Source of the DNA: Candidatus Iainarchaeum sp.
GTDB taxonomy: Archaea > Iainarchaeota > Iainarchaeia > Iainarchaeales > VGJJ01
NCBI GenBank assembly: GCA_030688545.1
Contig: JAUYHT010000006.1
Span: forward strand, 150,001 to 182,000
Reading direction: 5' to 3'
DNA: 32,000 bases
Shown here piece by piece: positions 11,568 through 31,556 of this stretch. The position numbers and the translations under genes are program-made. Below the pieces are notes generated by a model that saw only the letters and a list, made by a program, of their open reading frames with translations, had not been told where the DNA came from and did no database searches. The stretch's first letter is position 1. Every line of letters begins with the position of its first letter.

Positions 11568-11622
11568 GCTCCCCGCTCCCCATTCCGGGATGGAAATATG
11601 CACTCAAAGAGCCTTTTCTGCG

Positions 11623-13135: not shown

Positions 13136-13156
13136 ATAAAAATGCGATTATTTTCA

Positions 13157-13934: not shown

Positions 13935-14402
13935 TCACACCCCTAATCCCGCCAGAGGGAGGATGCGGCGCAGGGTTTCCATATCAGGGAATGCGTGCCA
14001 GAGCGCCCACACGAGCAGGCCGAATGCTAACACATACACTACATCATACCCGGCCGCGATGGCATAGTTGGGCAGCCGGACCTGACCATTTTCATAGATG
14101 TCTTCCAGGGCAAACCCTCCCAAAGTTTTTCCAAATAGGATGGCGGCCACAAGAGAAACGCCCAACAGGTTGCCCGAGATGGGAAAAACACTCACTAAAG
14201 GAGAGAGGAGCATCCCCAATAGGAAGAGGAACAACCACCCCATGATTCCAAAGAACAGGGTTCCCAGCCCCGCGCTCACCAAAATAAGTCCCAAAATCGC
14301 CAGCAGGGTGGGAGGGTCAAGGGAATAGGTAACCACTTGCGTCCCCAAAAAAACTCCCATCGTCCAGGCGAGGAAGAGGATGAGGAGGGCATGGTAGGTC
14401 AT
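13935..14402 (-). CDS. Polytopic membrane protein (155 aa, about 5 helices) immediately downstream of G3
   Basis: The track ORF 13935..14477 overlaps the G3 stop. The internal ATG 14402 gives MTYHALLILFLAWTMGVFLGTQVV... It starts 25 nt after the G3 stop codon, which begins at 14428. GC content is similar to the giants. Confidence 0.7.
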   Translation of the reverse strand: MTYHALLILFLAWTMGVFLGTQVVTYSLDPPTLLAILGLILVSAGLGTLFFGIMGWLFLFLLGMLLSPLVSVFPISGNLLGVSLVAAILFGKTLGGFALEDIYENGQVRLPNYAIAAGYDVVYVLAFGLLVWALWHAFPDMETLRRILPLAGLGV

Positions 14403-14427
14403 ACGCGCAATAATTCTGGGAGAGTTA

Positions 14428-17400
14428 TCAGGTGGCCGTGCACTGGAGGGCCGCGGGCACCACGTCTTCGGAGGCAAGATCCCAGATCACCGTGAACACA
14501 TCCTTGGAGATGTCTCCGCAGGCTTGTCCGGTTTGGATGCGGGCGAGAATATCTTGCAACGATTGGGGCGCTGCGGCCGGGCCGCGAAGATCCATAAATT
14601 GGACCTGGGTGCTGGGGCTGGCAGGAGGCAATCCCACGGTGTTTGAAATAGTCTTCACATCCGCCGTCCCGGTGGTGCAGGCGGGGAGCAACCGATAATT
14701 TTTCTCCGGTGGAATAAAGGCCATCCCCGTGTACACATATTCGTTCCCCGCCAGATCCCCGACTAATGAAAAGTCGCCCGGTCGCCCGGTGTTGCAGGTG
14801 GGACCCGTGGTCGATGATACGGGTATTCCATTCGGGTTGGCGCAATCAATCCACCGGATGCTTGCTCCATTGATGGCCACTCCCGGGGGAATAGCGGCTT
14901 GCCCGGATTCCACAATGGTATATTGCAACGCAGGCTGGGAGGCGGGGCTGTCCATCCGCAGACGAATGGGGGCAGGAGTAGAAGGAGCATACTGGAAGCT
15001 ATACCCCCCACCCCTCCCTTCCAGTCGGAAGAACGTGGGCACACCCTGCGCGGCCACGAGATCCCCGATGGCTGAAATAGTCTCATAGGTTTGGAGCGTG
15101 AGCAAGGGCACTCCCGTCGAAGGAATGCTGCTCGTGAACCCCACACTATCGTCCCGATAGGGCATTCCCGCGCTCACGGCGGGCAGGCTTAACCCAACCC
15201 CATAGCCGCTGCGTACCCTCCCAACGCCCGTTTTCCCATTGAAGGGAATGCGGAAGAAGGGGTTGTCCGCGTAGGCGGTGTTTCCGCTGTTTAGTTGCGT
15301 GTCAATTTCCCCCAGAGAAAGATAGGATACCGCATCTCGTTTAATTCGCACGGCCAGGGATTTCACGCCATCCGAATCATTTTCCCATGTGGCCACGAAG
15401 CTAGCGGGATACAACCCTGCCTCCGGGACAGGAGGGGAAATAAGCATGCGTTGAATAATATCCAAATTGGTTAGCATTTGGTTGTTGAAGGCCGCCGGGT
15501 AGTCATACCCTTCCCCGCTCACGAACGCCAAATCCGAGAGGAGGAACTGGGAGAAAGCATCCTGCATCATGTACACGTTCATATCCACGAACCTCCCGCG
15601 CAAAGAATCGATGTCCGCGTACGCCGTGTCCTGGAATGTCAATCCCCCTTTCTGTCGCGCATGGGACAGCACATACCCTAAGCGGGCAGCATCCCAAGCC
15701 TCTGCTTCCGTGTCCGTGGGAACGAGCATCCCCACTTGCACGGATTCGACGGCATCATAGATGGCCCGATATACTCCGGGGGTGAACTGATGACTGTCCC
15801 CGGGTTGAGTGAGGGAGGCGAGTGCCCAGCAGTCTGTCCCGCAGAGGGTTGGATTTATTTTGTTGGACTCATCGAAGAAATGCCTGAATTCGGAGAACAG
15901 CCATACGTATTTCTTCTCCCCATTTGGGAAAGTCACTTCATCGGCCCCCATTCCTTTGATTCCAGTCGCGACAAGCCTGCTCACCTTATCCGCGTCCAGC
16001 ACGATCACCAATTGCTCCGCCAATTTATTCCCAGCCGCGTTGTTCTGTATTTCCTCGAACTTCTGTTTGACGAACGCCACGTAAGAAGTGTAATCGGCCG
16101 GCACTTCATTCAAATTGGGGGCGTTGCTCAGGGCGGTAAACACATTGTCAATGAGCAATTTGGCAGATTGGGAGGACGTGGTTTCTTTAACCACCCCATC
16201 CCCAGCCGAATTAACGAAGAAGGAGCGCGTGGGCTTCCCAGTCGTCTGGTCATCCGTGACGGTAATTTGATCATGAATAGCAAGCACGAAATTCTGGCTC
16301 GTGTAATCCTTATCAGCATCGCTGAACAATCCCGAGGCCTGGTTGGCTTTCACGAAGGTATCGAATTCCTTCAGACGTTTGGAGGTGAATATCATGAATT
16401 GCGTGGCATCGCAAAAGTATTGCGTGCAGTCCGGACTCCCCTCATAGGTCCAATCCCACGTGAGCCGGTCGAACCCATACTTGGAAACGAATCCGGGACC
16501 TTTCTCATAACCTGTTTCCGTGCAGGCCTGGGGGGTGAATATGGCCGTACTTGGTTTTCCCACGGGTTTGATGACAATGCGCACGGGCAGGGACACTTTC
16601 TGCGTTCCCGGGTTGGCAATGGTTCGCGTGACCTCCAAAGTTAGAATACCCTCGATGACCGCTTCCTGCGTCAGGTTAAGTGGACGATTGATCTGGACCT
16701 GGAGGTCGTGTTTTCCGGACACCGAAAAGATGGCTTGCACGCTCGGGTTTTGCCGGCTCGTGAGGATAGTAGGGGTGACACTCCGGATGTAATCCACTTG
16801 TCCGCAGAATTCTTTTCCGTCAATGATCCCGGTCTTCAGCACTGCATTGGGGGCTTTCGTGGTATGGGTGAGGATGGTCTGCCCCTGGAATTCCGCGTCC
16901 CCAAATTCGAGGGCGGCCGCCCCCGTGTCGGTGCCAATGGCACGAAAACGTAATGCGTCCTCATTGACGCATTCTGAATAGTTGGTGATGCTTTCACTTC
17001 CCCCCTGCAGCAAGGGGTTGATAGCTGAGGCCAGGTTGAAGAGGTTTTCGAATATCACGGGGAAGGGTTTCTGCTGCGGCCCCCCATATGGGTCCAAGTA
17101 TTTCACCGAGATGGTGCCATAGGATTCGACCCGGTAATAATTAAGTTCCGCGAAGAATTTGAGGTCCAGCACCTGCTTGGGAAAGCTCCCTCCCTGGTCG
17201 AAGGGGGAGAGTTGATGTTGATACGTAGTGAGGTCGGGGAATATCTGGAACTCCAATACCTGCACGGTGTCGCGTCCGTCTCCTTGCGTGGAGATGCCTA
17301 TGATTTGGATGTCCTGCACCAGGGAATTGGGTTGTTGGCTCACTCCTTGCTTGGGGTCCAATGTGGTATTTCCTTTGGCATCCTTGAGGGAAGCAATGGT

Positions 17401-20400
17401 CACCGTGTCCGCGCTGGGCACCAATCGTACACCCTCGTCGTAGCAATTGTTGTACACCTTTCCCTTCACCGGCTTCTGGATGAAATCATTAAAACGGTAT
17501 TTGGTGGTGTTCAGGGAGATGCAATCCTGGTTGACCTCCGTGGGGGATCTCACGAGGACGCTTATGAACGCCACTTCCGTGGAAGGATCCGTACTCCCTT
17601 GCGCGCGGGCATTTACGTTCACCCCATATTTGCCTATGCGGTAACCGGGTTGCACGAACACCCGCTGCGTTTGCGTGGGTTTCAGTGAAAAGGTTCCCTG
17701 CGAGGACTGGAGATTGGGATCCACATCCAATACTATTTGTACTTCGGATTGGCACGCATTCTCTATGCGAAATTCGGTTCCCGCGCACCCGAATTGTCCT
17801 CCGGCCCCCGGGGCATAATTGTATCGGTCGAAATTGGGGTTGGCAAACGGCCCTTGAGCCCCGGCGAAGTAGTTGGCGGATTGCGGCGTGAACTGGGCCG
17901 AATAGGGACCCATGTTCCCAAACCCATCCACCCCTCCCGGTCCATACGCCCCAGGGTAGGTTCCCGTGAAGAATGGACTCCCATACGTGATATTAGAGGG
18001 AATGGCACTGGTTCCACTGGGATTAGATGTCTGGTTGAGCGTCTGGAACCCGGGGTTGAAATAGGGTACGCCCGTGGGTCGGTAGACTTGATTGTAATAA
18101 TTGCTCATCTGACTAAAACCAGTGTTGAGGGCGCAGGTTTCTATTTCAAGGATGGGAGGAGCGTTGACCCGCACGCATTGCGTCAAATCATTGACGACGA
18201 GGTTCATGGTCACCGTCTTTTCCAGGTGATCCGGAAACCCGGTTCCCGTGAGGTTGGTGGCGCGGAATACGATTTGGGGTTGCGCAACTCCTGAAAGGAT
18301 GTCTCCCGGGGCGAATGTAATGGTCACAATGGCCTCCCCATTGGCGGGGATGGCATCCAAAACGGTTTCATAAGCGGCCCCCAGGGTTTTGGTTTCCTGA
18401 GTCGTGGCACCGGTGAACGTCCCCAGGGAGTTCCCCGCGAGCTGTTTTACTTTCACCGCGAGGTCCGTGAGACGCACGGGAACCCCTTTCACCGTGCACG
18501 TGTTCTTGATCTCAAAGGCCTGCTGTTTCCTTTCCTTGGTTCCCACGAACGCATCCCAGGTCACGGGCTGTACGAGCAAACAATCCTCCACATCCACTTC
18601 CCCCCCGAATCCCAACTTGAGAGTGAGGGGAAGGGCATTGGTGAAGACTTTTCCCGAGGCTTCGTTTTCCACGATCACGAGGAGACTCCCTTTGAATGTT
18701 TTGGCGGCCAATAATTTCCTTCCTTTATCGGTGAGGTCGAGCGTGAATTGGATATTGGCATCCCCATTCACCGGCAATGTTTCCCCGATGACTTCATGGG
18801 TGATGAGGTCGAACCGCACGAGTTCCTCAAAATCCCCCGAGAGTTTGACATCTCGTATCACGAGGGGAATGCTGGCCAAATTCAGGGCGCGCACCTCTTT
18901 GGCCTTGCGCCCCGTGCCATTGATGATAAGCGTTTCATTCAATTGGGCCGGCTGGAACAGGAGGATGTCGGCTCCCACGGTGATGGATATGGTCACTGGC
19001 TTATACCCAGGTTTGGAAAGGGTAATGTCCAATTTGTCATTGACATTGGGTTCATTCAGTTCGAATGGAAAAATCCCCTCCCCATCCGTGAACCCGCTCG
19101 CGTGGAGCACGCTATTCTTCAGCACCTGCACATTCACATTTTCCAATGGAATAGCGGTTTCCCCCAGGGGTTTAGTTACGCGCACCAGGATTTGGTTGGA
19201 TAGCAAAGGCAGTATGGCCTTGGGCACGATTTCCACTGTGAATACTTCGGCCGCGTCCACCCGGATAACCACATCCCTCGAAAACAATTCCTTTTTGTTG
19301 CTGACCATCTTGAGCGAGACGATGGATGTTCCTTCCTTGCTCGCGTCCACGTTCACGAATCCGAATACGACATTGTTTTGTTGGATGATGCCCACAGGTA
19401 TCTCCGCTTTGTTCCCAGCTACGTTTCCCGTGCGCTTGGCCCCCACCGCATTAGTCACCTCGAATGCTCCTAAAGAGGCGCTCCCCGAGCTGGATTGGAT
19501 CACCAAAGACGTGTCTTGCAACACTGCCTCCGAGGTACTATGAATGGTGAATAACATTTTGTGTCGTGTCCCAATATCCAATGTGGTGTCCCCCAGAAGA
19601 GGGGTTTGCAACCCATTGGCAATATCCTCCATCACGAGGGCGGCGCAGAATTCCTGGCTGCACACGCTCGCGCTCGCTCCCACACTGTAGGAAGCCAAAT
19701 TAGTATTGGCATACAACCCCTGCTTCTGTTGGGTGGATTCGGCTCCCGCCAATACCGCGTCCACTGGAAATCGTACGAATGATCCCGTTTTCCCCCACCC
19801 GCGGTAAAACAATGGCAAATCCGTCCCTTGGGCCACGCTGTCCTTCACCCGCACATCCACTTCCACGATAGTAATGCCTTCCCGCGGGTTCTCGAAAACG
19901 ATGTTGCCCCATTTCGCCTCTCCCGAGGTGAGGTGCTGGGCATCAATCCCCAATCCGGTGGGCGGGGTATATGTGGTGCCCCGTTGGATGTTAGTGGTGG
20001 GGGCACGGATATTAACCAGGGTCCAGGCATCATTCTCCATAGGATTCGTCTGCCCATCTACGGCGTTCCCTGTGCGCACGTGCATCCCCGTCTCATTGAA
20101 AATAGCATTGCGCGGGATGAAGAGGCCGAGTTGAATGGTATACGTTTGCCCCGGCGCCAATCCCGCGTCCGCGAGAAGAGGTTGGGTATTCACCCAGGTG
20201 CCGAGCACCCGCACTTCGAGGCGCTGGATATCCTTTACCAATTGCGCCGCCACCATTTGGGTTATTCCTTTCTTGAGGGCAATGGGTAGGGTTGTATAGG
20301 GAAGATGCTCCCCCTCCGTGATCACGAAATACACCTGCTTGTCGGCCCGTAATGTCACTTCTTTAGTCCCATCCACGTCGAGGGAAATCTCATTCCCCTC

Positions 20401-22005
20401 ATTCTGGTGGGTGCGCGCATCAATAGGTTGGAGTCGGGCGCCCGCGAGGGGTTGTCCATCGAAACCAGTGACTTTAACAAGGATATTTCCCGTCCCAATC
20501 GTGAGGCGGATGGTGCTCTCGACATTCTCCCGGGCCCGCACCTCGAATACGTCCGATCGTATCTGGTCGGAAAACCCGGGTTTGTAGGCGCTCGCGAAAT
20601 AACTTCCTTCTTCTAATGAGAGGAATAACACCGTGCCCCCTGCTCCCGTGGTCTTACTACTTCCAACCGTCGCTCCATTCCCTGATCGTTTCAATGAAAC
20701 AATGGCGTTCTCCACGGGCTTCCCCAATTCGTCCACGACTCGAATAGTAACCCCTTGGGAATTCTGCAAGGTGGCTTTCGCCACCCCTATCTGGGTGTAG
20801 CCGGCCTCCGACACGGTGACTGGAACATTGGTCTTGAGATACGCCGGATGATCGATTCCCACTGAAAGATTTTGGGTGGTTGACACCGCGAAGGTTACTT
20901 GTCCTCCCTCATTGGTCTGCTTCTGCGTCACTACTTGATTAGCCCGGCTCAGGATGACGATGGCTCCCGACACCGGGCTTAATGTTGATTCATCCACTAT
21001 TTGGAGGCGCACATCCCCAATGGTTTTGGGCTTCATGGTTAAGGTGATGGTGGCCGGGGCGTTTCCCATAACTTGCGTGGGAGCGCTTTCTATGGGCGCG
21101 TACAGATCGTCATACGCCCCCACCACATACGTGTCTTCTACCAGCCCCCTGAATTCAGCAAACCCCGTGGGATCGGTGAATTGGGTGTAGAGGACATCCC
21201 CAAAGGGATTGAGAATATTGATCGTGGCGCCCGCAATAGGTTGCGTCTGTTCATTGATGACGGTGACGCGAATAATCCCATTTCCTTGCACGGGGGGCAC
21301 CACGTATACGGCAGGCTGGTTGCTTTCGAGATCAATGATCCCTGACTCTAATCGCACCCTATCGTCCAAAGATATAGCGGTGAGCGTGCCGCAGGATCCG
21401 GGCACGGATAATGAAATGAGGCCCGTGTTACTCGTTCGGGTCTCCGAGTAAGTGGCGTCCCCGGAGCAGGCGAATTGCAGGGTCACAGATTCCAAATAGG
21501 ATTCACTGGAGTTGGCGCGATATACCTGGAGGGCAATGGAAGTAATTACATTGGTCGGACTCCCAATGAGGCTGATACGAGGAGTGCTGCTGCTAACGAT
21601 AAGCGTGCGCTCTTGAAATGTATGGGTGTCCGAAGTGGCTCGAACAGTAATCGTTTGTCCCCCCGCCAACCCCGAAAATGAAGCGTTCCCCGTCGCGTCC
21701 GTGAGGAGGGTGCGCGAAACATTATCCCCCTGGATCTGGATGGAAACATTGGCCAACGGATTTTGGGTGTCGTCCTGCGCCAACACGTTGAGAGTGTTTC
21801 CCACGAGAATACTCCCACCCCCCAGAGCGGTGAACAACCCCACCAGCACCAAAAATGTCACCAATACCGCAAGAGGAAACGTAGGGATGTTCTGGGCCTC
21901 AATCTTATCTATTATACTATACACCGGCAACCCATGCTTATCCATCCAGTCGAGCAACGCGTAATATTTGTCCTCCCCCGCCGTGTATAGCCCCTTCAGC
22001 CCCAT
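14428..22005 (-). CDS. Giant signal-anchored surface protein, paralog G3 (2,525 aa)
   Basis: Uninterrupted 7.6-kb ORF. ATG 22005 gives MGLKGLYTAGEDKYYALLDWMDKHGLPVYSIIDKIEAQNIPTFPLAVLVTFLVLVGLFTAL. Beta-sandwich repeats are present (e.g. VTIRVVDELGKPVENAIVSLKRSGNGATVGSSKTTGAGGTVLFLSLEEGSYFASAYKPGFSD). There is a G/Y/F/N/P/Q-rich low-complexity segment and the motif TQYFCDATQF. The C-terminal half is collinear with G2. Confidence 0.9.
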   Translation of the reverse strand: MGLKGLYTAGEDKYYALLDWMDKHGLPVYSIIDKIEAQNIPTFPLAVLVTFLVLVGLFTALGGGSILVGNTLNVLAQDDTQNPLANVSIQIQGDNVSRTLLTDATGNASFSGLAGGQTITVRATSDTHTFQERTLIVSSSTPRISLIGSPTNVITSIALQVYRANSSESYLESVTLQFACSGDATYSETRTSNTGLISLSVPGSCGTLTAISLDDRVRLESGIIDLESNQPAVYVVPPVQGNGIIRVTVINEQTQPIAGATINILNPFGDVLYTQFTDPTGFAEFRGLVEDTYVVGAYDDLYAPIESAPTQVMGNAPATITLTMKPKTIGDVRLQIVDESTLSPVSGAIVILSRANQVVTQKQTNEGGQVTFAVSTTQNLSVGIDHPAYLKTNVPVTVSEAGYTQIGVAKATLQNSQGVTIRVVDELGKPVENAIVSLKRSGNGATVGSSKTTGAGGTVLFLSLEEGSYFASAYKPGFSDQIRSDVFEVRARENVESTIRLTIGTGNILVKVTGFDGQPLAGARLQPIDARTHQNEGNEISLDVDGTKEVTLRADKQVYFVITEGEHLPYTTLPIALKKGITQMVAAQLVKDIQRLEVRVLGTWVNTQPLLADAGLAPGQTYTIQLGLFIPRNAIFNETGMHVRTGNAVDGQTNPMENDAWTLVNIRAPTTNIQRGTTYTPPTGLGIDAQHLTSGEAKWGNIVFENPREGITIVEVDVRVKDSVAQGTDLPLFYRGWGKTGSFVRFPVDAVLAGAESTQQKQGLYANTNLASYSVGASASVCSQEFCAALVMEDIANGLQTPLLGDTTLDIGTRHKMLFTIHSTSEAVLQDTSLVIQSSSGSASLGAFEVTNAVGAKRTGNVAGNKAEIPVGIIQQNNVVFGFVNVDASKEGTSIVSLKMVSNKKELFSRDVVIRVDAAEVFTVEIVPKAILPLLSNQILVRVTKPLGETAIPLENVNVQVLKNSVLHASGFTDGEGIFPFELNEPNVNDKLDITLSKPGYKPVTISITVGADILLFQPAQLNETLIINGTGRKAKEVRALNLASIPLVIRDVKLSGDFEELVRFDLITHEVIGETLPVNGDANIQFTLDLTDKGRKLLAAKTFKGSLLVIVENEASGKVFTNALPLTLKLGFGGEVDVEDCLLVQPVTWDAFVGTKERKQQAFEIKNTCTVKGVPVRLTDLAVKVKQLAGNSLGTFTGATTQETKTLGAAYETVLDAIPANGEAIVTITFAPGDILSGVAQPQIVFRATNLTGTGFPDHLEKTVTMNLVVNDLTQCVRVNAPPILEIETCALNTGFSQMSNYYNQVYRPTGVPYFNPGFQTLNQTSNPSGTSAIPSNITYGSPFFTGTYPGAYGPGGVDGFGNMGPYSAQFTPQSANYFAGAQGPFANPNFDRYNYAPGAGGQFGCAGTEFRIENACQSEVQIVLDVDPNLQSSQGTFSLKPTQTQRVFVQPGYRIGKYGVNVNARAQGSTDPSTEVAFISVLVRSPTEVNQDCISLNTTKYRFNDFIQKPVKGKVYNNCYDEGVRLVPSADTVTIASLKDAKGNTTLDPKQGVSQQPNSLVQDIQIIGISTQGDGRDTVQVLEFQIFPDLTTYQHQLSPFDQGGSFPKQVLDLKFFAELNYYRVESYGTISVKYLDPYGGPQQKPFPVIFENLFNLASAINPLLQGGSESITNYSECVNEDALRFRAIGTDTGAAALEFGDAEFQGQTILTHTTKAPNAVLKTGIIDGKEFCGQVDYIRSVTPTILTSRQNPSVQAIFSVSGKHDLQVQINRPLNLTQEAVIEGILTLEVTRTIANPGTQKVSLPVRIVIKPVGKPSTAIFTPQACTETGYEKGPGFVSKYGFDRLTWDWTYEGSPDCTQYFCDATQFMIFTSKRLKEFDTFVKANQASGLFSDADKDYTSQNFVLAIHDQITVTDDQTTGKPTRSFFVNSAGDGVVKETTSSQSAKLLIDNVFTALSNAPNLNEVPADYTSYVAFVKQKFEEIQNNAAGNKLAEQLVIVLDADKVSRLVATGIKGMGADEVTFPNGEKKYVWLFSEFRHFFDESNKINPTLCGTDCWALASLTQPGDSHQFTPGVYRAIYDAVESVQVGMLVPTDTEAEAWDAARLGYVLSHARQKGGLTFQDTAYADIDSLRGRFVDMNVYMMQDAFSQFLLSDLAFVSGEGYDYPAAFNNQMLTNLDIIQRMLISPPVPEAGLYPASFVATWENDSDGVKSLAVRIKRDAVSYLSLGEIDTQLNSGNTAYADNPFFRIPFNGKTGVGRVRSGYGVGLSLPAVSAGMPYRDDSVGFTSSIPSTGVPLLTLQTYETISAIGDLVAAQGVPTFFRLEGRGGGYSFQYAPSTPAPIRLRMDSPASQPALQYTIVESGQAAIPPGVAINGASIRWIDCANPNGIPVSSTTGPTCNTGRPGDFSLVGDLAGNEYVYTGMAFIPPEKNYRLLPACTTGTADVKTISNTVGLPPASPSTQVQFMDLRGPAAAPQSLQDILARIQTGQACGDISKDVFTVIWDLASEDVVPAALQCTAT

Positions 22006-22027: not shown

Positions 22028-22037
22028 TTTTTATATG
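22028..22037 (-). promoter_or_regulatory. TATA-like box upstream of G3 (minus-strand reading CATATAAAAA)
   Basis: Centred about 28 nt upstream of ATG 22005 in the 85-nt gap after the pilin-like gene, a leaderless-type spacing. TTCCGGCCGGGAATCC lies just upstream on the minus strand. Confidence 0.55.
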
Positions 22038-22090: not shown

Positions 22091-23842
22091 TTACTCGCAC
22101 GCGCTCACATCAATGGTGCATTCCTGCGCACTGTTGGCGGGATAGCATCGGAGATCCCCTCCCGTGAAGGGCGTTCCTTGCGTTTGTCCATACACCACGC
22201 ACTGGTTGACCCCATCCCCATATTGGGTGAACAGGGGCACGTTGTTCACGTAGTCGCAGGGATCAGATGGGTCCAGGGAGTTGTTTCCACAAACAACGGG
22301 GGGCGGATGATACGTGTCGGGCAAAGCGCACGCGGTCTCCGGGCAGGCGCCCGCACTCACGATATCGCCCGTGACGAATAGTCCCGCGTAATCGCGGATG
22401 GTGGTCAGGCAATAACTCGTGCACCGTTCGACTTGCGCATTGGCCGCAAATGAATCGAGGATGCGCACCTCATACCGCAGGGGGGATCGGTGATCCACTA
22501 CCGCGTACTGCGTGTTCGTATCCTCGAAGCGGAGGGTCACATTGATGGTTGAGAGTTTGGTGCAGTGCGCCTCCACTCCAAAGCTGGGGGCGTTTTCCAA
22601 TCCCTCAAATGTAATCGTTTTACTGGGCACCCCCACGGGTTGACTCACAACAGTAATGTTGTTGGTGAGCAATCGAAAGTCAGGCGTTTGTGCGAGTTGG
22701 GTGAGGTTTATCTGCACTTGGTTCCCGATGATTCCTCGCGTGAGGGTGGAGAGTGCGGCCGCGCGCGATGGACCCACGGCGGGATCATAATGCGTGATGT
22801 TGGCATTGATAGATTGGCATAGGTTAAGCGATGCCGCGGGGGCATCGCAGGTTAATGGAACATTCTGGGGATAATAATCCTCGAATAGCGTCAATCCCGA
22901 TTGCTCGGCCGGGCAGAGGTTTCCACCCTGCGCCCCCGGTGGGGGTTGCGCCCCGGGGCCTATCTGCGCGAGTCCGGGAGTAAACGGTTGGCTACGGTAT
23001 CCGCACGCCCCCGAATCACACATTCCAACTCCCAAATTATTCAGTTGCGCATGAAACTGGGGGGATAACAATCCCCCGCCCCCCACCAATTGTCCTTGGG
23101 CCAATTCATGCGAATATTTGAGCGCGCGAAAAATGCGCAAGGGCACATAGATGCGGAATTGCCCGCGAGGGATTACCGGAGACACGATAACTCGTCCCGA
23201 TGAGGGATCCCTCACGTGGATGGCGGGCAATTTCTCGTATTCGTCATCCGATATCAATGAAAAATCCAGGTTCACATAGAATGTTCCCACGCATTCCACG
23301 GGGGGTGTGGTTTCATCACATTGGATGACTTGCAAGTAGTCCTTTTGTGCCCCGGCGGTCTGGTTCAGCACGCTTTCGATGGCCTGCTTGATCTCGGGTT
23401 CTTGTCCCCCTTGAATGGTAAGCGTGTAACCCCCGATGCTCCTTTCTTTGGTGAGAATGATTTGATATAAATTGGCGGCAATTCGCCCGGCGATGATACT
23501 CCCATTGTTCCCTCCGAAATAGAAGGTGGAGAAATGCCCGATAACGTCCTTCCATTGTTGGGATTGGGCGCTGTACAAATAGGGGTTGTCCGGGGTCTGG
23601 GTGTATTCCTCAATAGCATTGCGGATGCCATAATTAACCACCTGCAATGCGTCCGCGCGCGTCAGATCCGCGAGGGTTTGCATCCGGCTCTGCGCTTCGA
23701 TCTCCAACACCACTTCATTACTTGTGCGTTCCGCATTAATCATCGTATTAATGAGCAATCCCGCAAGGAGAATGAGGATGGCCGCCAGGAGCGCGGTGAA
23801 GAGGGTGAATCCCCTTTGGTTGCTAACTCGATTTGGTTTCAT
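22091..23842 (-). CDS. Type IV pilin-like (class III signal peptide) Cys-rich secreted protein, 583 aa
   Basis: The track ORF 22091..23950 overlaps the end of G4. The internal ATG 23842 gives MKPNRVSNQRG/FTLFTALLAAILILLAGLLINTMI: a short basic leader, a Gly, then ~22 hydrophobic residues. That is a prepilin-type signal, with Thr rather than Glu at +5. The mature part has 18 Cys, often in close pairs (CDETTPPVEC, CDSGACGY, CTSYC, CPETAC, ECTIDVSACE at the C-terminus). Confidence 0.8.
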   Translation of the reverse strand: MKPNRVSNQRGFTLFTALLAAILILLAGLLINTMINAERTSNEVVLEIEAQSRMQTLADLTRADALQVVNYGIRNAIEEYTQTPDNPYLYSAQSQQWKDVIGHFSTFYFGGNNGSIIAGRIAANLYQIILTKERSIGGYTLTIQGGQEPEIKQAIESVLNQTAGAQKDYLQVIQCDETTPPVECVGTFYVNLDFSLISDDEYEKLPAIHVRDPSSGRVIVSPVIPRGQFRIYVPLRIFRALKYSHELAQGQLVGGGGLLSPQFHAQLNNLGVGMCDSGACGYRSQPFTPGLAQIGPGAQPPPGAQGGNLCPAEQSGLTLFEDYYPQNVPLTCDAPAASLNLCQSINANITHYDPAVGPSRAAALSTLTRGIIGNQVQINLTQLAQTPDFRLLTNNITVVSQPVGVPSKTITFEGLENAPSFGVEAHCTKLSTINVTLRFEDTNTQYAVVDHRSPLRYEVRILDSFAANAQVERCTSYCLTTIRDYAGLFVTGDIVSAGACPETACALPDTYHPPPVVCGNNSLDPSDPCDYVNNVPLFTQYGDGVNQCVVYGQTQGTPFTGGDLRCYPANSAQECTIDVSACE

Positions 23843-23891
23843 GGTATCCCCAACCCCCTTTCCTCTTCCTTCCAATTGAAACCATCGATTA

Positions 23892-26800
23892 TTACCCACA
23901 GTCAACCCACGTCGCGGGCGCCACATACGCATCATTAGGGAGCAGGTCAATGGTCATGATCCTCCCTGTTTCGTTCTCAGAATCCTGACCCACCGTGATG
24001 GCATAGCTCTGCCCCTTCTCGAATACCAATTCTTGCGTCACCGCATCCAACACATTATTCGATCCCGTCTGGAGCGTTATTTTGTTCTCTATTTCCTTCG
24101 TCAGCATGCTCCGGTAGGCGAAATACCCCGCCACATTCCCCGCGCCCCCGCACACCAAACCTTGTCCCACGGCTTTGGTGATTTTCCCTGCTTTCGTCTG
24201 GAAATATTTGGAGGGGATTTTGAACGATTTGGCTTTTTCCAAAGATTCGCTCGCCAGACGGGAAACATCGCTCGCGTGGTGTTTGAACACCTCATCCGGA
24301 TATGGGGACGCGTATCCCGTTCTCAACGCCTTCCTAAGGGAAGTTGTTTCCTTGTCAATTTGCGTGATACGGTCCAACACTTGCCCTTTCAGGGCATCCA
24401 TTTCCGCTTTATTGAATCCCGGTTTGCCCTCATAAGCAGTAATGAGGTTATCGAATTTTTGGGCCGCATTATTTTGGATGGACGCGAAATTCCGGATCTG
24501 TTTCGCCCACTGGTCGGCCTCTACCACTGGAATGGTAGCGATTCGGGCAGGCTGTCGTACGCCGCCAGCCGGGGTGGGTGGAATGGTTAAATCCTTGAAC
24601 CGTTCCATGTAGCCGGCCGCTACTAGTTTATTCCCTTCGATGCGCGTGATGATCTGTCGTTGGGTCTGTTCGATGAATGCCAAGTCAGTTTCTTTGATGA
24701 GATTAGTGGGATCCCCCACGCTCACCTTGCGCACGGGTTTCCATAGATTCTTGGGAACCGATGTCAGAGTTCCAAAGGCGGCTCCCGCGGCCGCGGGTTC
24801 GTTTTCCTCATCGATGTCAAAGGCAAAGTCGGTTCCTTCGCGCAACGCATTAACAGGATATCCCGCGATGTCGGCAGGGGTCTCCAAAAAGGTTCCATCC
24901 GCCTGTTCCTGGTGCACCGAAAACCATCCCGCCGCGCCCCCGGCGCCGCAGGATACGGCACAGTCGATGGCGCCCGCAGCCAGCGTCGTCCCCCCAAATA
25001 TGAGACCGGCGCCCAATTGGCACGCCCCGCAGGTGATGGCGCAGGTGGCTCCGAAGGATAGGAGAGAGGCATCTTGGCGTTGACGCAAGGCTGCTTCATA
25101 CACCGGGTTGTCAATGGCTTTGATCCCTTGCCCCGCATAACTCACATAGGATTCTCCCAACCCGCGTGTGGCGCTCAACTGCTGGGTCACCTGCTGAATG
25201 GTTTTCTGGGATTGATCTTCCGTCCAATCCACTGTTCCATGCCACGTCCCATCCCCTTTCTGCAAGGCTTTGGATAGCAATTGTTCCGGGGTCTGCGTGC
25301 AGGTACGGAGTTCGATTGAAAGGGGATCGGCGCGCACCCCGTCCAATGTCCGCGTAGCGATGCTTTCCACTTTCACCCGGTCGGCGCGCTGTTGGATGCG
25401 CGGATCGGTTTGGCCGCAGAGGAGCACCTCTTTCCGGTATACTTGTCCATTGGGATCGAAACCCAATTCGTATTCCGCTCCATAGGTAATAATATTAGTG
25501 GGTCGCTCAGATAATGCTTCTTCCGCCCCTCCGGTTTCATACAGATTCAATTCCGTGAGCCCCGGAATAGTGGTTCCATTGGGGTTGAGGGTATAGGAAA
25601 CATTGCTCTTGATGTCCGACCTGGATTCTAAGGTGCAGCACGCGAGGGAAGAGCGGACCGCCAATCCGTTCACATTCGATGCTCCCGGGGAACACCCCTC
25701 ATACGTGAACGCCCCCACGTCCTTGATGGAGAAGATGCGCCACGTCTGCAAATCGGGAGTAACACACCCATTCACATTACTCCCAAGGGAAGTGAGTATT
25801 TGCCCCACTTCCGAGATGACTTCTTTGGGCACATTTCCCTGGGTTCGTTTGACCGTCGTGAGGATGCGTTTGGGATCATTTCCTGTCGTAGTGGGATCCA
25901 GAGTGAGTTCCACTACACTCTCAGTTAGGTTCCCGATGCGCAAATCCAGGTGATTGCTTCCCGTGCGGAGGGCATACCTGTTCGGGCTCCCGAATACGGT
26001 GTCAGCCAACCATTCCCCTTGCGTGCGAAGCTCATCCGAGGATGTCACCATCCCCAAAAGGGTGTTCCGGTTGTTGTTGAAAGTAAGCGTCCCATCGCGG
26101 GGAAGAAAGTTAGCCGCATTAGTAATGGTGTCCTGGCATTCGGCGGTTTTCCGGTAAGTCACATGGGCCACCCCCACATTGATGTGGTTGGGTTGCAGTT
26201 GGTTGGCGGCCACCTCCACTCCCCCCATTAACGTAAGGGTGTATTGTCCGCATCCCTGGAGGGGCGGGATGAATACCAATCCCCCTAATCCCGTGCCGAG
26301 GCGTGAACGGAATACCTCTTCGGGATTCTCTCCTTGCAATCCCGGGTTGAGTTGCGCCTGCATCCCTTTGAGGCGGGGGTATTTTTCTCCCTGCATGGCA
26401 TAGTTCATGATTTCAGGAGAAACGATGTCATGTTGCAAATACAGATCGAATGTCAGATTTTGTATGCCTAATTGGGGAAAAGTGCAATACCTCTGCGTCA
26501 AATCGCACCCCGTGAATTGGGAGGCATCATTCTTTTTTCCCTGCATGAGTTGGACGGTTTTGGAAATCTGTTGTTCGATGGTTTTGGATAAGAAATTGGC
26601 CGCCTGTTCGGCATCGCAGTATGCTTGCGTGCATTCATCCTTTTGGGCCACCACGGGGAATCGCACATCAATAGTGCCCCCGCCGCATAAGGGCACAGGG
26701 ATAGCATTCGTTGAGAGTCCTTGCTCCAGTTCGTTCTCCCCAATGCGAATATCGATGAGGAGTGGATTGCTCGCCACGCCCCTTTGGGATAGGACTTGGA

Positions 26801-29800
26801 TTCCTTCCACCTGGATGGATACTGTTTGACGGGTGGGGGTTTGTTTGGTGAGGAACAAGTGATAGGTTGCTTCCGCATCCTTCTCAATTATTTCATCTCC
26901 CGATTGAAGGGGGTTGATATCCAGCCCATTCGTCCCCACCGTTGAGGGAGTGATGCGGGTGATGCGCACGGGCTCGAGGCAGGTGTTGCGAATAGTGAAT
27001 GGTTTGGATATCGTCCCGCTCAAAGTGGAGGAGGCAAACAGAATGGGGGTGTCCAAAGCGCTTATTTCAAGGCACGAGCTGGTTCCCGTTTGGATGGAAA
27101 TGTCCACCCTCCGGAGGAGGATGCGTTTGCCTTCCACGATCCCTGAAATGACAATGGTCCGCGGAGGATTTTTTTCAGGGACGCGCGTCAGCTCCCCCAC
27201 CAGATTTAAGGGGGGTTGCATCGTCTGACCGGGGGCTAATGTAACCCCTGTTCCTCGAGGAGCGATTTGAATGGCGCCTTCTAATTTCAATGCCAAACCA
27301 GGAATTGTTTCCCCCTCGATCTGGGCCTGCACCCCAAAAATGGGGACGCTCCCAATATTGGTGAGGGGAATAATGGCCCGGTCCGAGGCGGGTTGGTTGT
27401 CTTTCTGGATGAGAGTAAGTTCAACGCTCGCGGGAGCCTGCACCGCGGCCTGCCTATCCCAGAAATTGATTTCCAATGGCAGGCTCGCCGCGACTTGAGG
27501 GGCGCGGAAGGCCAAAGTATAGGTCAATGGGGACTTGGGATATCCCATCCCCACCTGGTAAGGAGAGGCCCTTCCCGCATACCCACTCATTCCAAACGCA
27601 GGATTCATCCCCGAAAATCCATCCCCATACCCATATCCCCCAAACCCGGTGTTGGCTTGGCGGAGCAACTCATTCGTGATGGAGATATCCACGGCCTTCT
27701 TTTGCCCATTTTTCAAAACCAATCCGGAGTCCACGGCTGCAATACGCAGCCCATCCACCTGCAAACTCCCATCCGGCGCAAGTATACTCGGCACCACATT
27801 CAATTCCTGGCCACAATTGTTAGTCACTTCCACACTCACCCGCTTGAGTTCGGGATTTGAATAATAGCCGCTCGCCTCATACCCATAGGCATTTGTTCCC
27901 GCGGCATTGTACACCTCGGTGTTGGGCGCGCCATACAATCCATAAGGGGAAATAGCGGGGTTCGTTTGGAAACCCCCAGCCCCCCCATACAAGGATCCGA
28001 AGGGCTGGGATTCCCCCATGAGGAGCACGGATAGTTTCTGCTTGTTGAACGCCAGGCACGCAGGATCAAGGGCCGGGTTGTAGGTGATGGAGAGTTGCGT
28101 ATTTCCCCCGAGCACATGACCATTTAATACTTCTCCCTGCACGCGCAACGCGGTCGTTCCATGATGGCTACTTTGGGTGTCCGTCCCGGTGTAGGTCGCG
28201 CTTACTTGGATGATGGCACTCCCATTCGGGGGAATGGACGCAGGGGGAACAAATTCCATTTGGAGGGAGGTGGGAAATCCCTCGAATGGGACAAAGGTGC
28301 CGGTGATATTTGTGATGGGGTGCGGGGTGTTGTTGCGCACGCTAATATTTTGAGTGACCTTGGTCTGCCCAAAAGGAATAGCTATCGCCACTTTCTCTTC
28401 CAACTGAAGAGGGTTGCTAATTCCAATAGCCACACTCTCTTCAAATCGTTCAAACCCGGGAACATCTATTTTTACCGCATAAATGCCTGGGGCGAGGCGG
28501 TTAGCCAAAAGATATCCCCCGTTTTCTCCATTCTGGGGAAGATTGCGTCCTTTGGTGGAGATGGCCATTTTTCCTTTGGCATCTTGGAGGGAAATGAACG
28601 CATTGGTTATGGGATTTCCTTGTTCATCCTGCACGGTAATGCGGATTCCCTCTTCCAAGGGGATTTCCCTATCCAGTTGCACCTGCAACACGCGAGGATT
28701 GGTAAGAGTAATGGGAATCTCGCGCGACCAGGCGGTTTGACTCGTGACCAGGTTCACCTGGATACTTGTCTCCCCCTCCCCTTGAGTCACGAAATGGGCG
28801 CGGGCCTTTCCGGGGGAGGAAACAGAGAAAGTGGGCAGTGGGATAGAAATATTGGTTTCACGCACACCATCGCTATCCAACTTCCCGAAGGGGGGGACTT
28901 CTCCTTTGGTGAAGAACAGCAGGGGATCCGTGGCACTCGTACTCATACGGATGGTCGCGGAAGCAGTAGTGGCGAGCGGCACCAATCCGGGAGTGGTTGG
29001 GGAAGAAGCCGCGGCCCCAGTTGAAGTAGGGGGCGGGAGCATCTCCACGTGAAGGGCATACGTCTTTCCCGTGACGCCTCGAAACCCTCCTATTTCATAC
29101 TCCCGATTGTTTTCATCCACGAAAAAAAGAGTCGCACACACATCCCCCGTGCAGAAGGGGAGGCGCGGGTAGATGGGAATGGGAATCGTGCGCGTGTCCG
29201 CATACAATCCTGATTTGGCGGGGGTGAAAGGCGCACTACCTAATCCGTCATCCGTGGGAGTGCGTTGGACTCCTCCCTCTCCTTCCAAGGAAGCCCGGTA
29301 CTGCAGTTCCTGTGTCCCTGTGGGGATGCCCGCGCGCGCGGCGAGGCGCACATCGAAGATATGCGTGCCGGCTGGGTTATCAAGCGTGACCTCTATCCAC
29401 TTATTGAAGCTACCCGCTTTCCCGCGCTGGGCCCGGTCTTTGGGTTCGTTCCCGGGGGGAGGATTAGGGGAATAGGTTTTCCCATATTCTATTTTGGTCG
29501 CATCCCCATTTAGACCGGTGATGCCTATGAATTGCGAGTCGATGGAAGTAATCGTGTCGCTGCCCGCGCGCACGTGAAACACTCCTTTCTTCCCGGGAGG
29601 AAAACGGACCTCAAACCGAGCGAATCCTTCGTGATCGGGGGCCAAACCCGGGATGGTATTTCCCCCGGCGTCAACCAATCCCAGGAATGTGATAGATGGC
29701 GCGTCCCCGACAGATGTAGTTTCCCCGATGACCACATCTATGTTCTCACTCCCATCCAATGTGAGGGTTTGGGAAAACGTATTCCCTTGGGCATCCCGGG

Positions 29801-31520
29801 TGCGGAGATTCACCACGCGATTTCCCAATACATCCACATTCACAAACCCATCCCCAACTTCTCCCGTGAACAAAACCTCTCCGGCTTGGGATGTGAAAGT
29901 AGCCTCTCCCTGAAAGGGCGCCCCCGTTGGCAGGCGCAGGTTGAAACGAATCTCATTAAGCCCATTCGTCAATGATAATGTGATTTTGTTGAGTCCCGCG
30001 GCGATGGTCACCTCTTCATTGTCAACGACATCCCCTTTGGCCGCTTCCACGAGGAGTGTTTTTCCGATAGGCACGCGCAGGGTGAAGCTTCCCCCCGCGT
30101 CCGCGCGCTGTTCATAAACATAGGGCAGCCACCCCCCTCCCTCCTTCTCCCACACCGTGAACACCGCATCATTAGCGGCCTTCCCATTCGCATGGCTCAC
30201 GAACACCACGAGCGTCCCGGATTGCTCGGTGGTGATGGCATTCAGGAAAAGGGCAAGGGTTTTCTTCCCCTCCGAGGCGGGCAAATCATCCCATAATACC
30301 GGAGTACGCAATGGGAAATAATTAGGGTGGAAGGCCAGCACCCAATATGCGCGGGTTTGATTCAGCCCAGGGAATTCCGCGTCTCCCGAGAAAGAAGAAG
30401 AGAGGTCAGCCAATTTCTGGTTGTTAGCATCCAGAAGAAGAAGTTGCACGTTCGTAAGAGGATTGTTATTCCCCTGATTGCGGGTGGTGACAACAAGTGA
30501 AATTCCCCCACTCCCAAGGGAGGCAATGATGGTTTCTTCCTGGTTGCGCAGGGTGAGCCCATTCCCATTGGCGGTATTGGTTGAGAACCCGAGATACCCT
30601 TCTTTCTCAACCCGCACCCGAATAACCGTGCCCTTGGGAATGGTTTCAGAATGTTGCCCACTGGATGAAAGGATGTCCGTGTAGGTGGCCCCACTCGCAG
30701 CGTCCTCGATGACAATGCGCACATCCCCCAATAGGATTTTGGTTTGCGCATCAATGGCTTTCACCAAAACAGTGCTGGTCCCGCTCCGGGCATCCGCCTT
30801 GGGCGAGAGTTCTTTTATTTTGGTATCCGTTCCCGTGAATGTGATGATGTCCACGAGGTCCTCGTAATTGTTGGCTTTCAGGGTGAGGGATATGGCTTTG
30901 TTGAGAGGGGCGTTCAATAATGCCACCCCTTCCGCGTTAGTCGTAGTCGTCAATGGAAATTCATTCCCCGTCCACGTGGCAGATACCACGACCCCAGGGA
31001 TAGGCGTCTGCGTCTCCTTGTCCACTATTTTTAATTTACCTACAATGGCTTCGTTATCCCCTTGAAGGATGATGCGTAGCCCGGTGTTGGTGCTGAGCAA
31101 TGTGGCTTCGTTCGACTCATACCCTTGTTTCCGCGCCTGCACGGTAAGCACCGCTTGAGGGGATATTCCTTCTAACAAAATAGTTTGTCCATCCGAAGCC
31201 GTGAGTTCCTTGATAATATTCCCCTGCTCGTCAACGATCTGCAGCGAGGCGTTGCGCAAACTTTCCCCCGTATGGTCGCGGAGTTGAAGGGTAAAAGAAA
31301 TATCCTGCGTCGTGGGAGTAGTGACCAGGTAAGCCAAACCCCCGATCAGCAGAACGAAAAGAGCCAGCGTCACGGGCAATGCGGGAATACCCTTGCTCTC
31401 CAAGGCATCATTGTACGCCCACGGAAAACCGATTCCCTTTTCCTCGAAAAAATCCAGGACACCATAATAGGCATCCTCCAGTTTCACGTAAAGGTTCCCC
31501 AACCCCGCGCTCAAACCCAT
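23892..31520 (-). CDS. Giant signal-anchored surface protein, paralog G4 (2,542 aa from ATG 31520)
   Basis: Uninterrupted 7.6-kb ORF. The track start 31538 is a TTG only 10 nt from the TATA box. ATG 31520 gives MGLSAGLGNLYVKLEDAYYGVLDFFEEKGIGFPWAYNDALESKGIPALPVTLALFVLLIGGLAYL. Beta-sandwich repeats are present (e.g. KLKIVDKETQTPIPGVVVSATW...TNAEGVALLNAP). There are two G/Y/F-rich low-complexity patches and the motif TQAYCDAEQ. An extra C-terminal hydrophobic/helical module is also present. Confidence 0.9.
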   Translation of the reverse strand: MGLSAGLGNLYVKLEDAYYGVLDFFEEKGIGFPWAYNDALESKGIPALPVTLALFVLLIGGLAYLVTTPTTQDISFTLQLRDHTGESLRNASLQIVDEQGNIIKELTASDGQTILLEGISPQAVLTVQARKQGYESNEATLLSTNTGLRIILQGDNEAIVGKLKIVDKETQTPIPGVVVSATWTGNEFPLTTTTNAEGVALLNAPLNKAISLTLKANNYEDLVDIITFTGTDTKIKELSPKADARSGTSTVLVKAIDAQTKILLGDVRIVIEDAASGATYTDILSSSGQHSETIPKGTVIRVRVEKEGYLGFSTNTANGNGLTLRNQEETIIASLGSGGISLVVTTRNQGNNNPLTNVQLLLLDANNQKLADLSSSFSGDAEFPGLNQTRAYWVLAFHPNYFPLRTPVLWDDLPASEGKKTLALFLNAITTEQSGTLVVFVSHANGKAANDAVFTVWEKEGGGWLPYVYEQRADAGGSFTLRVPIGKTLLVEAAKGDVVDNEEVTIAAGLNKITLSLTNGLNEIRFNLRLPTGAPFQGEATFTSQAGEVLFTGEVGDGFVNVDVLGNRVVNLRTRDAQGNTFSQTLTLDGSENIDVVIGETTSVGDAPSITFLGLVDAGGNTIPGLAPDHEGFARFEVRFPPGKKGVFHVRAGSDTITSIDSQFIGITGLNGDATKIEYGKTYSPNPPPGNEPKDRAQRGKAGSFNKWIEVTLDNPAGTHIFDVRLAARAGIPTGTQELQYRASLEGEGGVQRTPTDDGLGSAPFTPAKSGLYADTRTIPIPIYPRLPFCTGDVCATLFFVDENNREYEIGGFRGVTGKTYALHVEMLPPPTSTGAAASSPTTPGLVPLATTASATIRMSTSATDPLLFFTKGEVPPFGKLDSDGVRETNISIPLPTFSVSSPGKARAHFVTQGEGETSIQVNLVTSQTAWSREIPITLTNPRVLQVQLDREIPLEEGIRITVQDEQGNPITNAFISLQDAKGKMAISTKGRNLPQNGENGGYLLANRLAPGIYAVKIDVPGFERFEESVAIGISNPLQLEEKVAIAIPFGQTKVTQNISVRNNTPHPITNITGTFVPFEGFPTSLQMEFVPPASIPPNGSAIIQVSATYTGTDTQSSHHGTTALRVQGEVLNGHVLGGNTQLSITYNPALDPACLAFNKQKLSVLLMGESQPFGSLYGGAGGFQTNPAISPYGLYGAPNTEVYNAAGTNAYGYEASGYYSNPELKRVSVEVTNNCGQELNVVPSILAPDGSLQVDGLRIAAVDSGLVLKNGQKKAVDISITNELLRQANTGFGGYGYGDGFSGMNPAFGMSGYAGRASPYQVGMGYPKSPLTYTLAFRAPQVAASLPLEINFWDRQAAVQAPASVELTLIQKDNQPASDRAIIPLTNIGSVPIFGVQAQIEGETIPGLALKLEGAIQIAPRGTGVTLAPGQTMQPPLNLVGELTRVPEKNPPRTIVISGIVEGKRILLRRVDISIQTGTSSCLEISALDTPILFASSTLSGTISKPFTIRNTCLEPVRITRITPSTVGTNGLDINPLQSGDEIIEKDAEATYHLFLTKQTPTRQTVSIQVEGIQVLSQRGVASNPLLIDIRIGENELEQGLSTNAIPVPLCGGGTIDVRFPVVAQKDECTQAYCDAEQAANFLSKTIEQQISKTVQLMQGKKNDASQFTGCDLTQRYCTFPQLGIQNLTFDLYLQHDIVSPEIMNYAMQGEKYPRLKGMQAQLNPGLQGENPEEVFRSRLGTGLGGLVFIPPLQGCGQYTLTLMGGVEVAANQLQPNHINVGVAHVTYRKTAECQDTITNAANFLPRDGTLTFNNNRNTLLGMVTSSDELRTQGEWLADTVFGSPNRYALRTGSNHLDLRIGNLTESVVELTLDPTTTGNDPKRILTTVKRTQGNVPKEVISEVGQILTSLGSNVNGCVTPDLQTWRIFSIKDVGAFTYEGCSPGASNVNGLAVRSSLACCTLESRSDIKSNVSYTLNPNGTTIPGLTELNLYETGGAEEALSERPTNIITYGAEYELGFDPNGQVYRKEVLLCGQTDPRIQQRADRVKVESIATRTLDGVRADPLSIELRTCTQTPEQLLSKALQKGDGTWHGTVDWTEDQSQKTIQQVTQQLSATRGLGESYVSYAGQGIKAIDNPVYEAALRQRQDASLLSFGATCAITCGACQLGAGLIFGGTTLAAGAIDCAVSCGAGGAAGWFSVHQEQADGTFLETPADIAGYPVNALREGTDFAFDIDEENEPAAAGAAFGTLTSVPKNLWKPVRKVSVGDPTNLIKETDLAFIEQTQRQIITRIEGNKLVAAGYMERFKDLTIPPTPAGGVRQPARIATIPVVEADQWAKQIRNFASIQNNAAQKFDNLITAYEGKPGFNKAEMDALKGQVLDRITQIDKETTSLRKALRTGYASPYPDEVFKHHASDVSRLASESLEKAKSFKIPSKYFQTKAGKITKAVGQGLVCGGAGNVAGYFAYRSMLTKEIENKITLQTGSNNVLDAVTQELVFEKGQSYAITVGQDSENETGRIMTIDLLPNDAYVAPATWVDCG

Positions 31521-31548
31521 AGCAATCCCACCCATCAAACCACGGGAA

Positions 31549-31556
31549 TTTATAAA
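31549..31556. promoter_or_regulatory. Palindromic TATA-like box TTTATAAA upstream of G4
   Basis: Centred about 26 nt upstream of position 31526, which puts ATG 31520 within a few nt of the predicted transcript start. The box reads the same on both strands and directly abuts repeat unit 1 on the plus side. Confidence 0.55.

Follow-up and report, generated by a model that had tools for sequence, protein, structure and literature searches.

Analysis of a 32,000-nt stretch of DNA from Candidatus Iainarchaeum sp. (assembly GCA_030688545.1, contig JAUYHT010000006.1, positions 150,001 to 182,000; this whole stretch is hereafter the window, and its coordinates are used throughout unless a locus is named) led us to propose that a gene lying between two giant genes, here called P, encodes a prepilin-like, membrane-anchored adaptor or organiser of the giant proteins, which would be cut after residue G11 by the prepilin peptidase of the cell. 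We put the probability of this reading at about 0.5. It is supported by the conservation pattern of the N-terminal signal, the even-cysteine signature, a long N-terminal helix, the single-copy status of P and the invariant synteny of its locus. The gene and the parts of its product are as follows.

22091..23842, minus strand: P gene, with the ATG start at 23842 and the stop codon at 22091-22093, as based on the translation, an identical NCBI protein and homologues.
23810..23842, minus strand: P leader, residues 1-11 (MKPNRVSNQRG), ending in R(-2) G(-1), with the predicted prepilin-peptidase site after G11.
23732..23809, minus strand: P hydrophobic domain, residues 12-37 (FTLFTALLAAILILLAGLLINTMINA), which is predicted to serve mature P as its membrane or core helix.
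23597..23803, minus strand: N-terminal alpha-helix, residues 14-82 (69 residues), continuous in both AlphaFold models according to DSSP and carrying the family signature ADLTRADALQVVNYGIRN.
22094..23596, minus strand: predicted extracytoplasmic globular part, residues 83-583 of the AlphaFold model.

P comprises 583 amino acids (aa), and its translation begins MKPNRVSNQRGFTLFTALLAAILILLAGLLINTMI. The leader MKPNRVSNQRG is followed by the hydrophobic domain and then by ERTS..., with 26 uncharged residues standing directly after G11. An earlier note, made from the letters of this DNA, had read MKPNRVSNQRG as a class III-type signal with a non-acidic residue (Thr) at +5. The results showed that the pattern recurs in 79-83 of 86 family open reading frames (ORFs), far beyond chance. 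The 79 ORFs bearing the motif were taken for an N-terminal census, which gave the following residues around the predicted site.

Position -2: K/R in 76/79 ORFs.
Position -1: G in 62/79, A in 17/79.
Position +1: F in 79/79.
Position +2: T/N.
Position +3: L/M.
Position +4: F/Y.
Position +5: T in 68/79, S in 11/79, D/E never.
Position +6: A in 79/79.

Both parts of the earlier claim were borne out, the +5 residue being T or S in all 79 ORFs, and four additional family members carried the variant KGFN(L/M)FS at the site. The leaders were 4-18 aa long in well-called genes and mutually unrelated in sequence. Information content rose from 1.0 bit per column over the leader to 3.3 at -2/-1; the hydrophobic domain followed with 3.1, the remaining helix with 2.6 and all other parts of the protein with 1.5-2.1. 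The hydrophobic domain was the best-conserved segment of the family. A variable leader, an invariantly small junction residue and a highly conserved, apparently retained hydrophobic segment together have the look of class III signals, and such a pattern would not be normal for cleavable Sec signal peptides or simple anchors.

According to PMC4371748, class III signals of archaea are recognised by a charged residue at -2, one of G/A/S at -1 and, beyond the site, a hydrophobic domain; only in bacteria is an acidic +5 usual. When P was held against these criteria, which apply to PibD/FlaK substrates and are of the FlaFind type (PMC4371748), it agreed at -2, at -1 and in the hydrophobic domain after the site. 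The bacterial PilFind rule demands [GAS]-x4-[DE] plus a length of <=350 aa (PMC3244431), and P departed from it twice, by T/S at +5 and by its 583 aa. The FlaFind/PilFind-type test that had been proposed for P thus came out positive on the archaeal side and negative under the PilFind rule. P agreed with other bacterial pilin criteria, having G/A at -1 with F at +1 and a single N-terminal transmembrane (TM) segment. EppA-dependent archaeal pilins carry Gln at +1 and Glu at +5 (PMC4371748); P has F and T/S at these positions and no match to PF04021.

AlphaFold2, run with the family alignment, gave a full-length model of P (mean predicted local distance difference test, pLDDT, 83; predicted template modelling score, pTM, 0.73) and a separate model of residues 1-262 (pLDDT 78), and the two models agreed. 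Residues D64, Q67, N70 and R74, which lie in the N-terminal helix, were invariant in the family alignment. Beyond the helix, the modelled ectodomain consists of an alpha/beta domain (83-250), Cys-rich loops and a sheet of long beta-strands (397-481), and the tail at about 518-583 is Cys-rich, acidic and poorly modelled. According to the models, the long N-terminal helix is pilin-like, and the remainder appears to be a fold without a match in PDB or BFVD.

A protein identical to P is on record at NCBI as 'hypothetical protein Q8P05_03730 [Candidatus Diapherotrites archaeon]'. A further 35 homologues, with 27-71% identity to the window protein by alignment, were unnamed or labelled Diapherotrites/Iainarchaeum, and none of them had a precomputed Pfam domain. 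When one genome of each GTDB species was scanned for P genes, 83 stretches encoding P came to light, and 80 of these were retained as loci. Nearly all of them belong to Iainarchaeum or to unclassified archaeal metagenome-assembled genomes, and the complete genomes CP064981.1 and CP010424.1 (AR10) are included. Three records were labelled Falkowbacteria, Thaumarchaeota and Micrarchaeota, with a gene order identical to that of the others. P was single-copy in each of about 80 species genomes, the sole genome with two hits having one gene split over two contigs, and the complete family ORFs called in the loci ranged from about 355 to 660 aa. No relatives were found on viral contigs; a profile search for distant relatives returned the same 36 proteins and nothing more; P gave no match at threshold in Pfam, NCBIfam or PHROGs; and the family profile gave 0 matches among PDB sequences. 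P defines an unannotated, single-copy family confined to Iainarchaeota/Diapherotrites.

P has 18 Cys, located between residues 175 and 582, and the even number that had been pointed out earlier proved to be a property of the family, in which members have up to 26 Cys. The count was even in 66/68 P proteins, in 38/42 giant B proteins and in 32/37 giant A proteins (the giants are described below). Even Cys counts look like the signature of intramolecular disulfides in extracytoplasmic proteins, and since the number is even in 66/68 family members, P itself is predicted to be extracytoplasmic. Repeats of the TIGR02232 (myxo_disulf_rpt)/DUF4215 type were present in the C-terminal tails of 15/36 relatives by NCBIfam and 11/36 by Pfam. 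In the window protein, the tail carries one degenerate unit of the CGNG..(D/E)..GE.CD type (VVCGNNSLDPSDPCD), which did not score on the TIGR02232/DUF4215 hidden Markov models (HMMs). N-x-S/T sequons numbered 7 in P against 4.3 expected (p ~0.13), so the enrichment was not significant.

The gene order around P was examined in a census of the ORFs of 85 loci, in which the downstream side was counted where at least 1.5 kb of sequence was available. A giant lay downstream of P in 58/58 loci, directly adjacent in 50 of them, and upstream of P in 63/68, which answers in the affirmative the earlier question of co-occurrence with giants sharing an N-terminal box. The recurrent order was giant A - P - giant B - small polytopic protein - giant C/D, and the order giant A - P - giant B - small TM protein - giant C was found in both complete genomes, CP064981 and CP010424. 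In the window, the partners of P are encoded as follows.

23892..31520, minus strand: giant A, 2542 aa from ATG 31520, matching an independent gene call (the ORF list starts at TTG 31538, giving 2548 aa).
14428..22005, minus strand: giant B, 2525 aa, whose N-terminal box reads EDKYYALLDWMDKHGLPVY...IPTF and is followed by a TM anchor and beta-sandwich repeats.
13935..14402, minus strand: small polytopic membrane protein, 155 aa, 4-6 TM helices, which follows giant B in related loci.
4167..11603, minus strand: giant C, 2478 aa as listed, with a likely start MGDVIKQTYF at 11567 and the same N-terminal box and anchor.
1..2864, minus strand: N-terminal part of giant D, starting near 2864 and running off the left window end, with the same box and anchor.

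Giant A likewise has the conserved N-terminal box and a TM anchor, and CarboxypepD_reg-type beta-sandwich repeats are common to the giants. The box spans about 45 aa (EDK[YW]Y..LD.LD..G.PVY..D.IE...IP[ST]F), is followed directly by the TM helix, and is conserved among the giant paralogues and throughout the phylum; the genes carrying it in the window start at 31520, 22005, 11567 and 2864. It matched no Pfam family, and the giants had no PDB sequence relatives. That the box is conserved suggests a partner in the cytoplasm or a role in targeting. With an N-terminal anchor of its own, each giant would need no filament to stay on the cell.

In the mechanism that we favour, the short basic leader of P would stay in the cytoplasm, and a housekeeping archaeal prepilin peptidase of the PibD/FlaK type would cut the protein after G11. 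F12 would then be the first residue of a helix of about 70 residues, the initial 24-26 hydrophobic residues of which would hold mature P in the membrane. The disulfide-bonded ectodomain of about 500 residues, with its putative new fold, would act as an adaptor or organiser for the giants; its partners would be the three to four N-terminally anchored beta-sandwich giants encoded around P, together with the small polytopic protein. The whole assembly may be a dedicated surface apparatus, probably for attachment, and would be no conventional type IV pilus.

Several results weigh against this proposal. Contact between P and the giants is indicated by a single line of evidence, the gene order. No curated pilin family was matched at its cutoff: the models PF07963, PF04021, TIGR02532, T2SSK and those of the TadE type gave zero matches among the 36 family members even at E<=10. 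ComGF-type minor-pilin models gave weak N-terminal matches in 27/36 members over the first 35-45 positions, the best of them reaching 3.5e-5 and 24 bits against a cutoff of 80, and there were scattered matches to ComGD/E/G, PilV and XpsI; weak as they are, these N-terminal matches count for the proposal. P thus resembles ComGF (NCBIfam NF041002) and its relatives in the first 35-45 residues, which form the G-F-T-L... helix, and differs from them in scoring 12-24 bits against a cutoff of 80, in a likeness that ends after the N-terminal helix and in having T/S rather than E at +5. The weak matches appear to reflect the G-F-T-L hydrophobic helix and nothing beyond it. Foldseek found a pilin or pseudopilin fold for neither model in PDB (best E 0.22 for the full-length model and 0.16 for residues 1-262), and nothing significant was retrieved with the full model against PDB plus BFVD and residues 1-262 against PDB (best E 0.06). 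Of the earlier description of P as pilin-like, the signal stands by the archaeal criteria; the membership of P in any pilin family is not established, as no HMM match at cutoff and no pilin fold in Foldseek were obtained.

A further point on the same side is the lack of pilus machinery nearby. The Pfam scan of the neighbourhoods, which covered 146 non-giant proteins from 80 loci within 10 kb of P, showed no T2SSE ATPase, T2SSF platform or peptidase A24 among the best 25 of 55 matched families, among which a T2SSE match would have ranked. In the window, as had been said of it before, the eight proteins tested against Pfam included no pilus ATPase, platform or peptidase family. The small polytopic protein was considered as a dedicated prepilin peptidase and rejected; its invariant Asp is a single one, a GxGD-type motif is lacking and it matched no family.

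Much of the same data would also be accounted for if P were an uncleaved type II signal anchor, whose helix is conserved for packing against the TM helices of the giants and of the small polytopic protein, the [K/R]G-F motif serving topology or packing and not proteolysis. We consider this less probable than our proposal but the main alternative to it; it draws on the lack of pilus machinery near the P gene in 80 loci, on the restriction of the P N-terminus to this one family, on the missing pilin fold and on a size of 583 aa that is far above that usual for pilins (PilFind limit, 350 aa). Moreover, all partners of P have N-terminal TM segments, with a conserved flank of their own, IP[ST]F. 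Against the anchor stands the motif itself: topology alone asks for no invariantly small -1 residue combined with an invariant Phe at +1 where overall identity is only 25-30%, and the abrupt switch from an unconserved leader to maximal conservation at precisely that bond is a hallmark of a processing site.

A true minor or tip pilin, which would tether the giants within a type IV filament whose major pilin and PilB/PilC-type machinery are encoded elsewhere, seems improbable to us. The class III-like signal followed by a long helix would suit such a subunit, and the non-acidic +5 and the large size have a precedent in GspK, a tip pseudopilin. Type IV pili genes have been reported for the Diapherotrites references AR10 and Ca. 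Iainarchaeum andersonii (PMC8561730), and AR10 (CP010424, locus L036) carries the P cluster; this statement speaks for the favoured reading as well. Besides, archaeal pilin genes are often unlinked to their machinery (PMC3244431; PMC4371748). A search of the literature and supplements for a prepilin peptidase in Diapherotrites yielded only the general statement of type IV pili genes. However, a phmmer search with P residues 1-48 against 1.84 billion representative proteins gave 11 matches, all of them P-family members or fragments; no other family detectably has the P N-terminus, and this speaks against a cognate major pilin whose core helix would match. In addition, no pilin fold was found, none of the 80 neighbourhoods held a minor-pilin set or a machinery gene, and the giants are membrane-anchored by themselves. 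The idea of the earlier note that P is a tip or adaptor subunit coupling the giants to a pilus-like filament found no support, since nothing showed a pilus, whereas its alternative, use of the pilin pathway merely for surface display, fits the data better.

It is unlikely that the hydrophobic stretch is a Sec signal peptide that is cut by signal peptidase I near the A-E bond of I-N-A-E (residues 35-38) to release a soluble secreted protein: the would-be -1 residue is indeed small (A/S/T) and the -3 residue aliphatic (I/V) throughout the family, but 26 uncharged residues are long for a Sec h-region, the segment is the best-conserved one of P, unlike discarded signal peptides, and the AlphaFold helix passes unbroken through the putative site. 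In 22/33 loci with enough upstream sequence (L003:1751-2284, L010:1471-2010, L078:1013-1600 and 19 other loci), giant A is directly preceded on its strand by a gene of the exosortase/archaeosortase family. The product of this gene has 170-220 aa and carries the motifs C(S/T)G, N..R and THD..FR; with 38-52 bits it exceeds the TIGR04178 cutoff of 23, and it belongs to no named subtype. The gene is absent from the window (31539-32000), where the corresponding position is non-coding. To our knowledge, all known exosortase/archaeosortase signals lie at the C-terminus and present their motif on the outer face of the membrane. A C-terminal sorting signal (motif, TM helix and basic tail) was absent from P, giant A and giant B, which have no C-terminal TM helix, and these proteins were rejected as classical archaeosortase substrates. 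That this enzyme, rather than a prepilin peptidase, processes or modifies the N-terminal site of P is the least credible of the explanations: the gene is a frequent neighbour and lacks its usual kind of substrate among P and giants A and B, yet the P motif lies at the cytoplasmic face of an N-terminal helix, contrary to the known signals, and the gene is missing from the window.

The P family and its predicted fold are new, the targeting signal is a known one, and the conserved cluster has not been described before. It occupies 25-30 kb of genomes of roughly 1 Mb, and because it is conserved, single-copy and phylum-wide, it is likely to be a major envelope or attachment structure. We know of no experimental knowledge of the cell surface of Iainarchaeota (Diapherotrites), a founding DPANN phylum, or of their contact with surfaces or partners. 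As the sole cluster component with a recognisable targeting signal, P offers a concrete experimental handle, and its ectodomain is a predicted new fold modelled at good confidence. If the favoured reading is true, P would be a further archaeal case of the prepilin pathway serving something other than filaments. An unclassified archaeosortase subtype without an obvious substrate was also uncovered. More speculatively, and with rather little confidence, we suggest that P, the three to four giants and the small polytopic protein, joined in most genomes by the archaeosortase-family enzyme, could form an undescribed, Iainarchaeota-specific surface organelle, in which P would be extracted from the membrane, or would oligomerise via its N-terminal helix, as a stem or hub for giant fibres used, for example, in host or particle attachment; it would be a derivative of the pilin pathway, maybe without a canonical ATPase. 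The interest of the cluster would be higher if it proved to be such a distinct organelle.

Among known systems, P was compared with archaeal class III signal proteins that are not pilins, for example the 'bindosome' proteins of Sulfolobus, which PMC4371748 mentions. Bindosome proteins are processed by PibD and bind sugars. Like these proteins, P has a short charged leader with K/R at -2 and a small residue at -1, a retained hydrophobic domain and a large non-pilin ectodomain, no pilus ATPase gene adjoins it, and the pilin pathway would serve surface display. Bindosome proteins have a known solute-binding fold and role, whereas P has a fold without a known match, a strict Phe at +1, up to 26 Cys in the family and a fixed synteny with giants. 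GspK, the tip pseudopilin of bacterial type II secretion, is the largest of its set and has no acidic +5. P may be likened loosely to GspK and to the type IVa minor-pilin/PilY1 tip complexes, in that a bulky adhesin is proposed to be linked to a pilin helix and that GspK, too, is without an acidic +5; it differs from these systems in that it gave no T2SSK or other pilin HMM match and no structural match, no companion minor pilins or machinery were found, the host is an archaeon and the large partners are themselves membrane-anchored. In the modular type IV pilins PilB/PilC of Streptococcus sanguinis, a pilin module can be recognised, +5 is acidic and the genes are linked to a pil locus. P shares with them a class III signal and an oversized C-terminal part, while no pilin module, acidic +5 or pil-locus linkage was seen in P.

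The start codon and the expression signals of P were inferred from the flanking DNA, in which the following features were recognised.

23843..23891, minus strand: giant A–P spacer, 49 nt, with a G-rich Shine-Dalgarno-like stretch.
22028..22036, minus strand: TATA-like box ATATAAAAA, 23-31 nt upstream of the giant B ATG.

The stop codon of giant A is at 23892-23894, so the spacer ahead of P is 49 nt and not 50 nt as first noted, and the 85 nt counted between P and the ATG of giant B (22005) were right. As stated before, P has no obvious TATA box of its own: an AT-rich TATA-like box was not found in the 49-nt spacer, which showed merely a TAATAAT overlapping the giant A stop. Giant A has the box TTTATAAA at 31549-31556, about 30 nt before its ATG at 31520. 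P is probably co-transcribed with giant A, because its 49-nt spacer contains no box comparable to those of giants A and B. The box ahead of giant B suggests that this gene has its own, nearly leaderless promoter, a function that is read from its sequence. A start at TTG 23950, which had been named as a finding that would overturn the signal, would add 36 aa to P. The homologue leaders are short (4-18 aa) and unconserved, nothing is conserved upstream of the leader, and with the additional 36 aa the gene would run into the 3' end of giant A; for these reasons ATG 23842 is the supported start and TTG 23950 is unsupported.

The small polytopic protein has 150-170 aa across loci and matched no Pfam or NCBIfam family; its single invariant Asp lies in a loop of the form G...(L/x)(E/D)D(I/F). 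Beside the archaeosortase-family gene, a divergent polytopic protein of about 340 aa with 7-11 TM helices was observed (L003:706-1719, L010:404-1438, L041:868-1926, L037:236-1225), which also gave no family match.

Some further features of the giants were observed. Giant D, being truncated, is missing from the mechanical ORF list. Around residue 2177, in its C-terminal part (window 23892-24900), giant A has an additional hydrophobic segment rich in Gly/Ala/Cys, and a weaker one lies around residue 2460; the two flank a charged region of about 280 aa and may mean more than one membrane pass; in close relatives, the end of giant A is a conserved module of about 70 aa (...FEKGQ.Y...W(L/V)DDC). 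In the complete Iainarchaeum genome (L002/L020, CP064981.1), giant B is split at 11676-19709 into ORFs of 2114 and 501 aa, by either a frameshift or a real split.

Between the giants of the window, two low-GC stretches (11604-13934 and 2947-4008) have 39-46% guanine plus cytosine against about 54%, and encode Lys/Arg-rich or small membrane ORFs of 353, 180, 177 and 131 aa. These ORFs had no Pfam or PHROGs match and no relatives in other loci except a copy from the same contig (L001). In most related loci giant C directly follows the small TM protein; since the ORFs have no relatives elsewhere and these two genes are adjacent in most loci, the stretches look like insertions.

The non-coding region upstream of giant A (31556-31860) contains four copies of a 27-61-nt direct repeat (TCGnCCGGCCGCACCGAGGGACGnGGG...), for which no tRNA or Rfam match was obtained. 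Each of the two full copies folds into nested hairpins, of which the outer stem, CCGGCCGC/GCGGCCGG, is conserved; the inner stems differ in sequence and both pair, GGGAGGTCA/TGACCTCCC in one copy versus GGGGGATT/AATCCCCC in the other.

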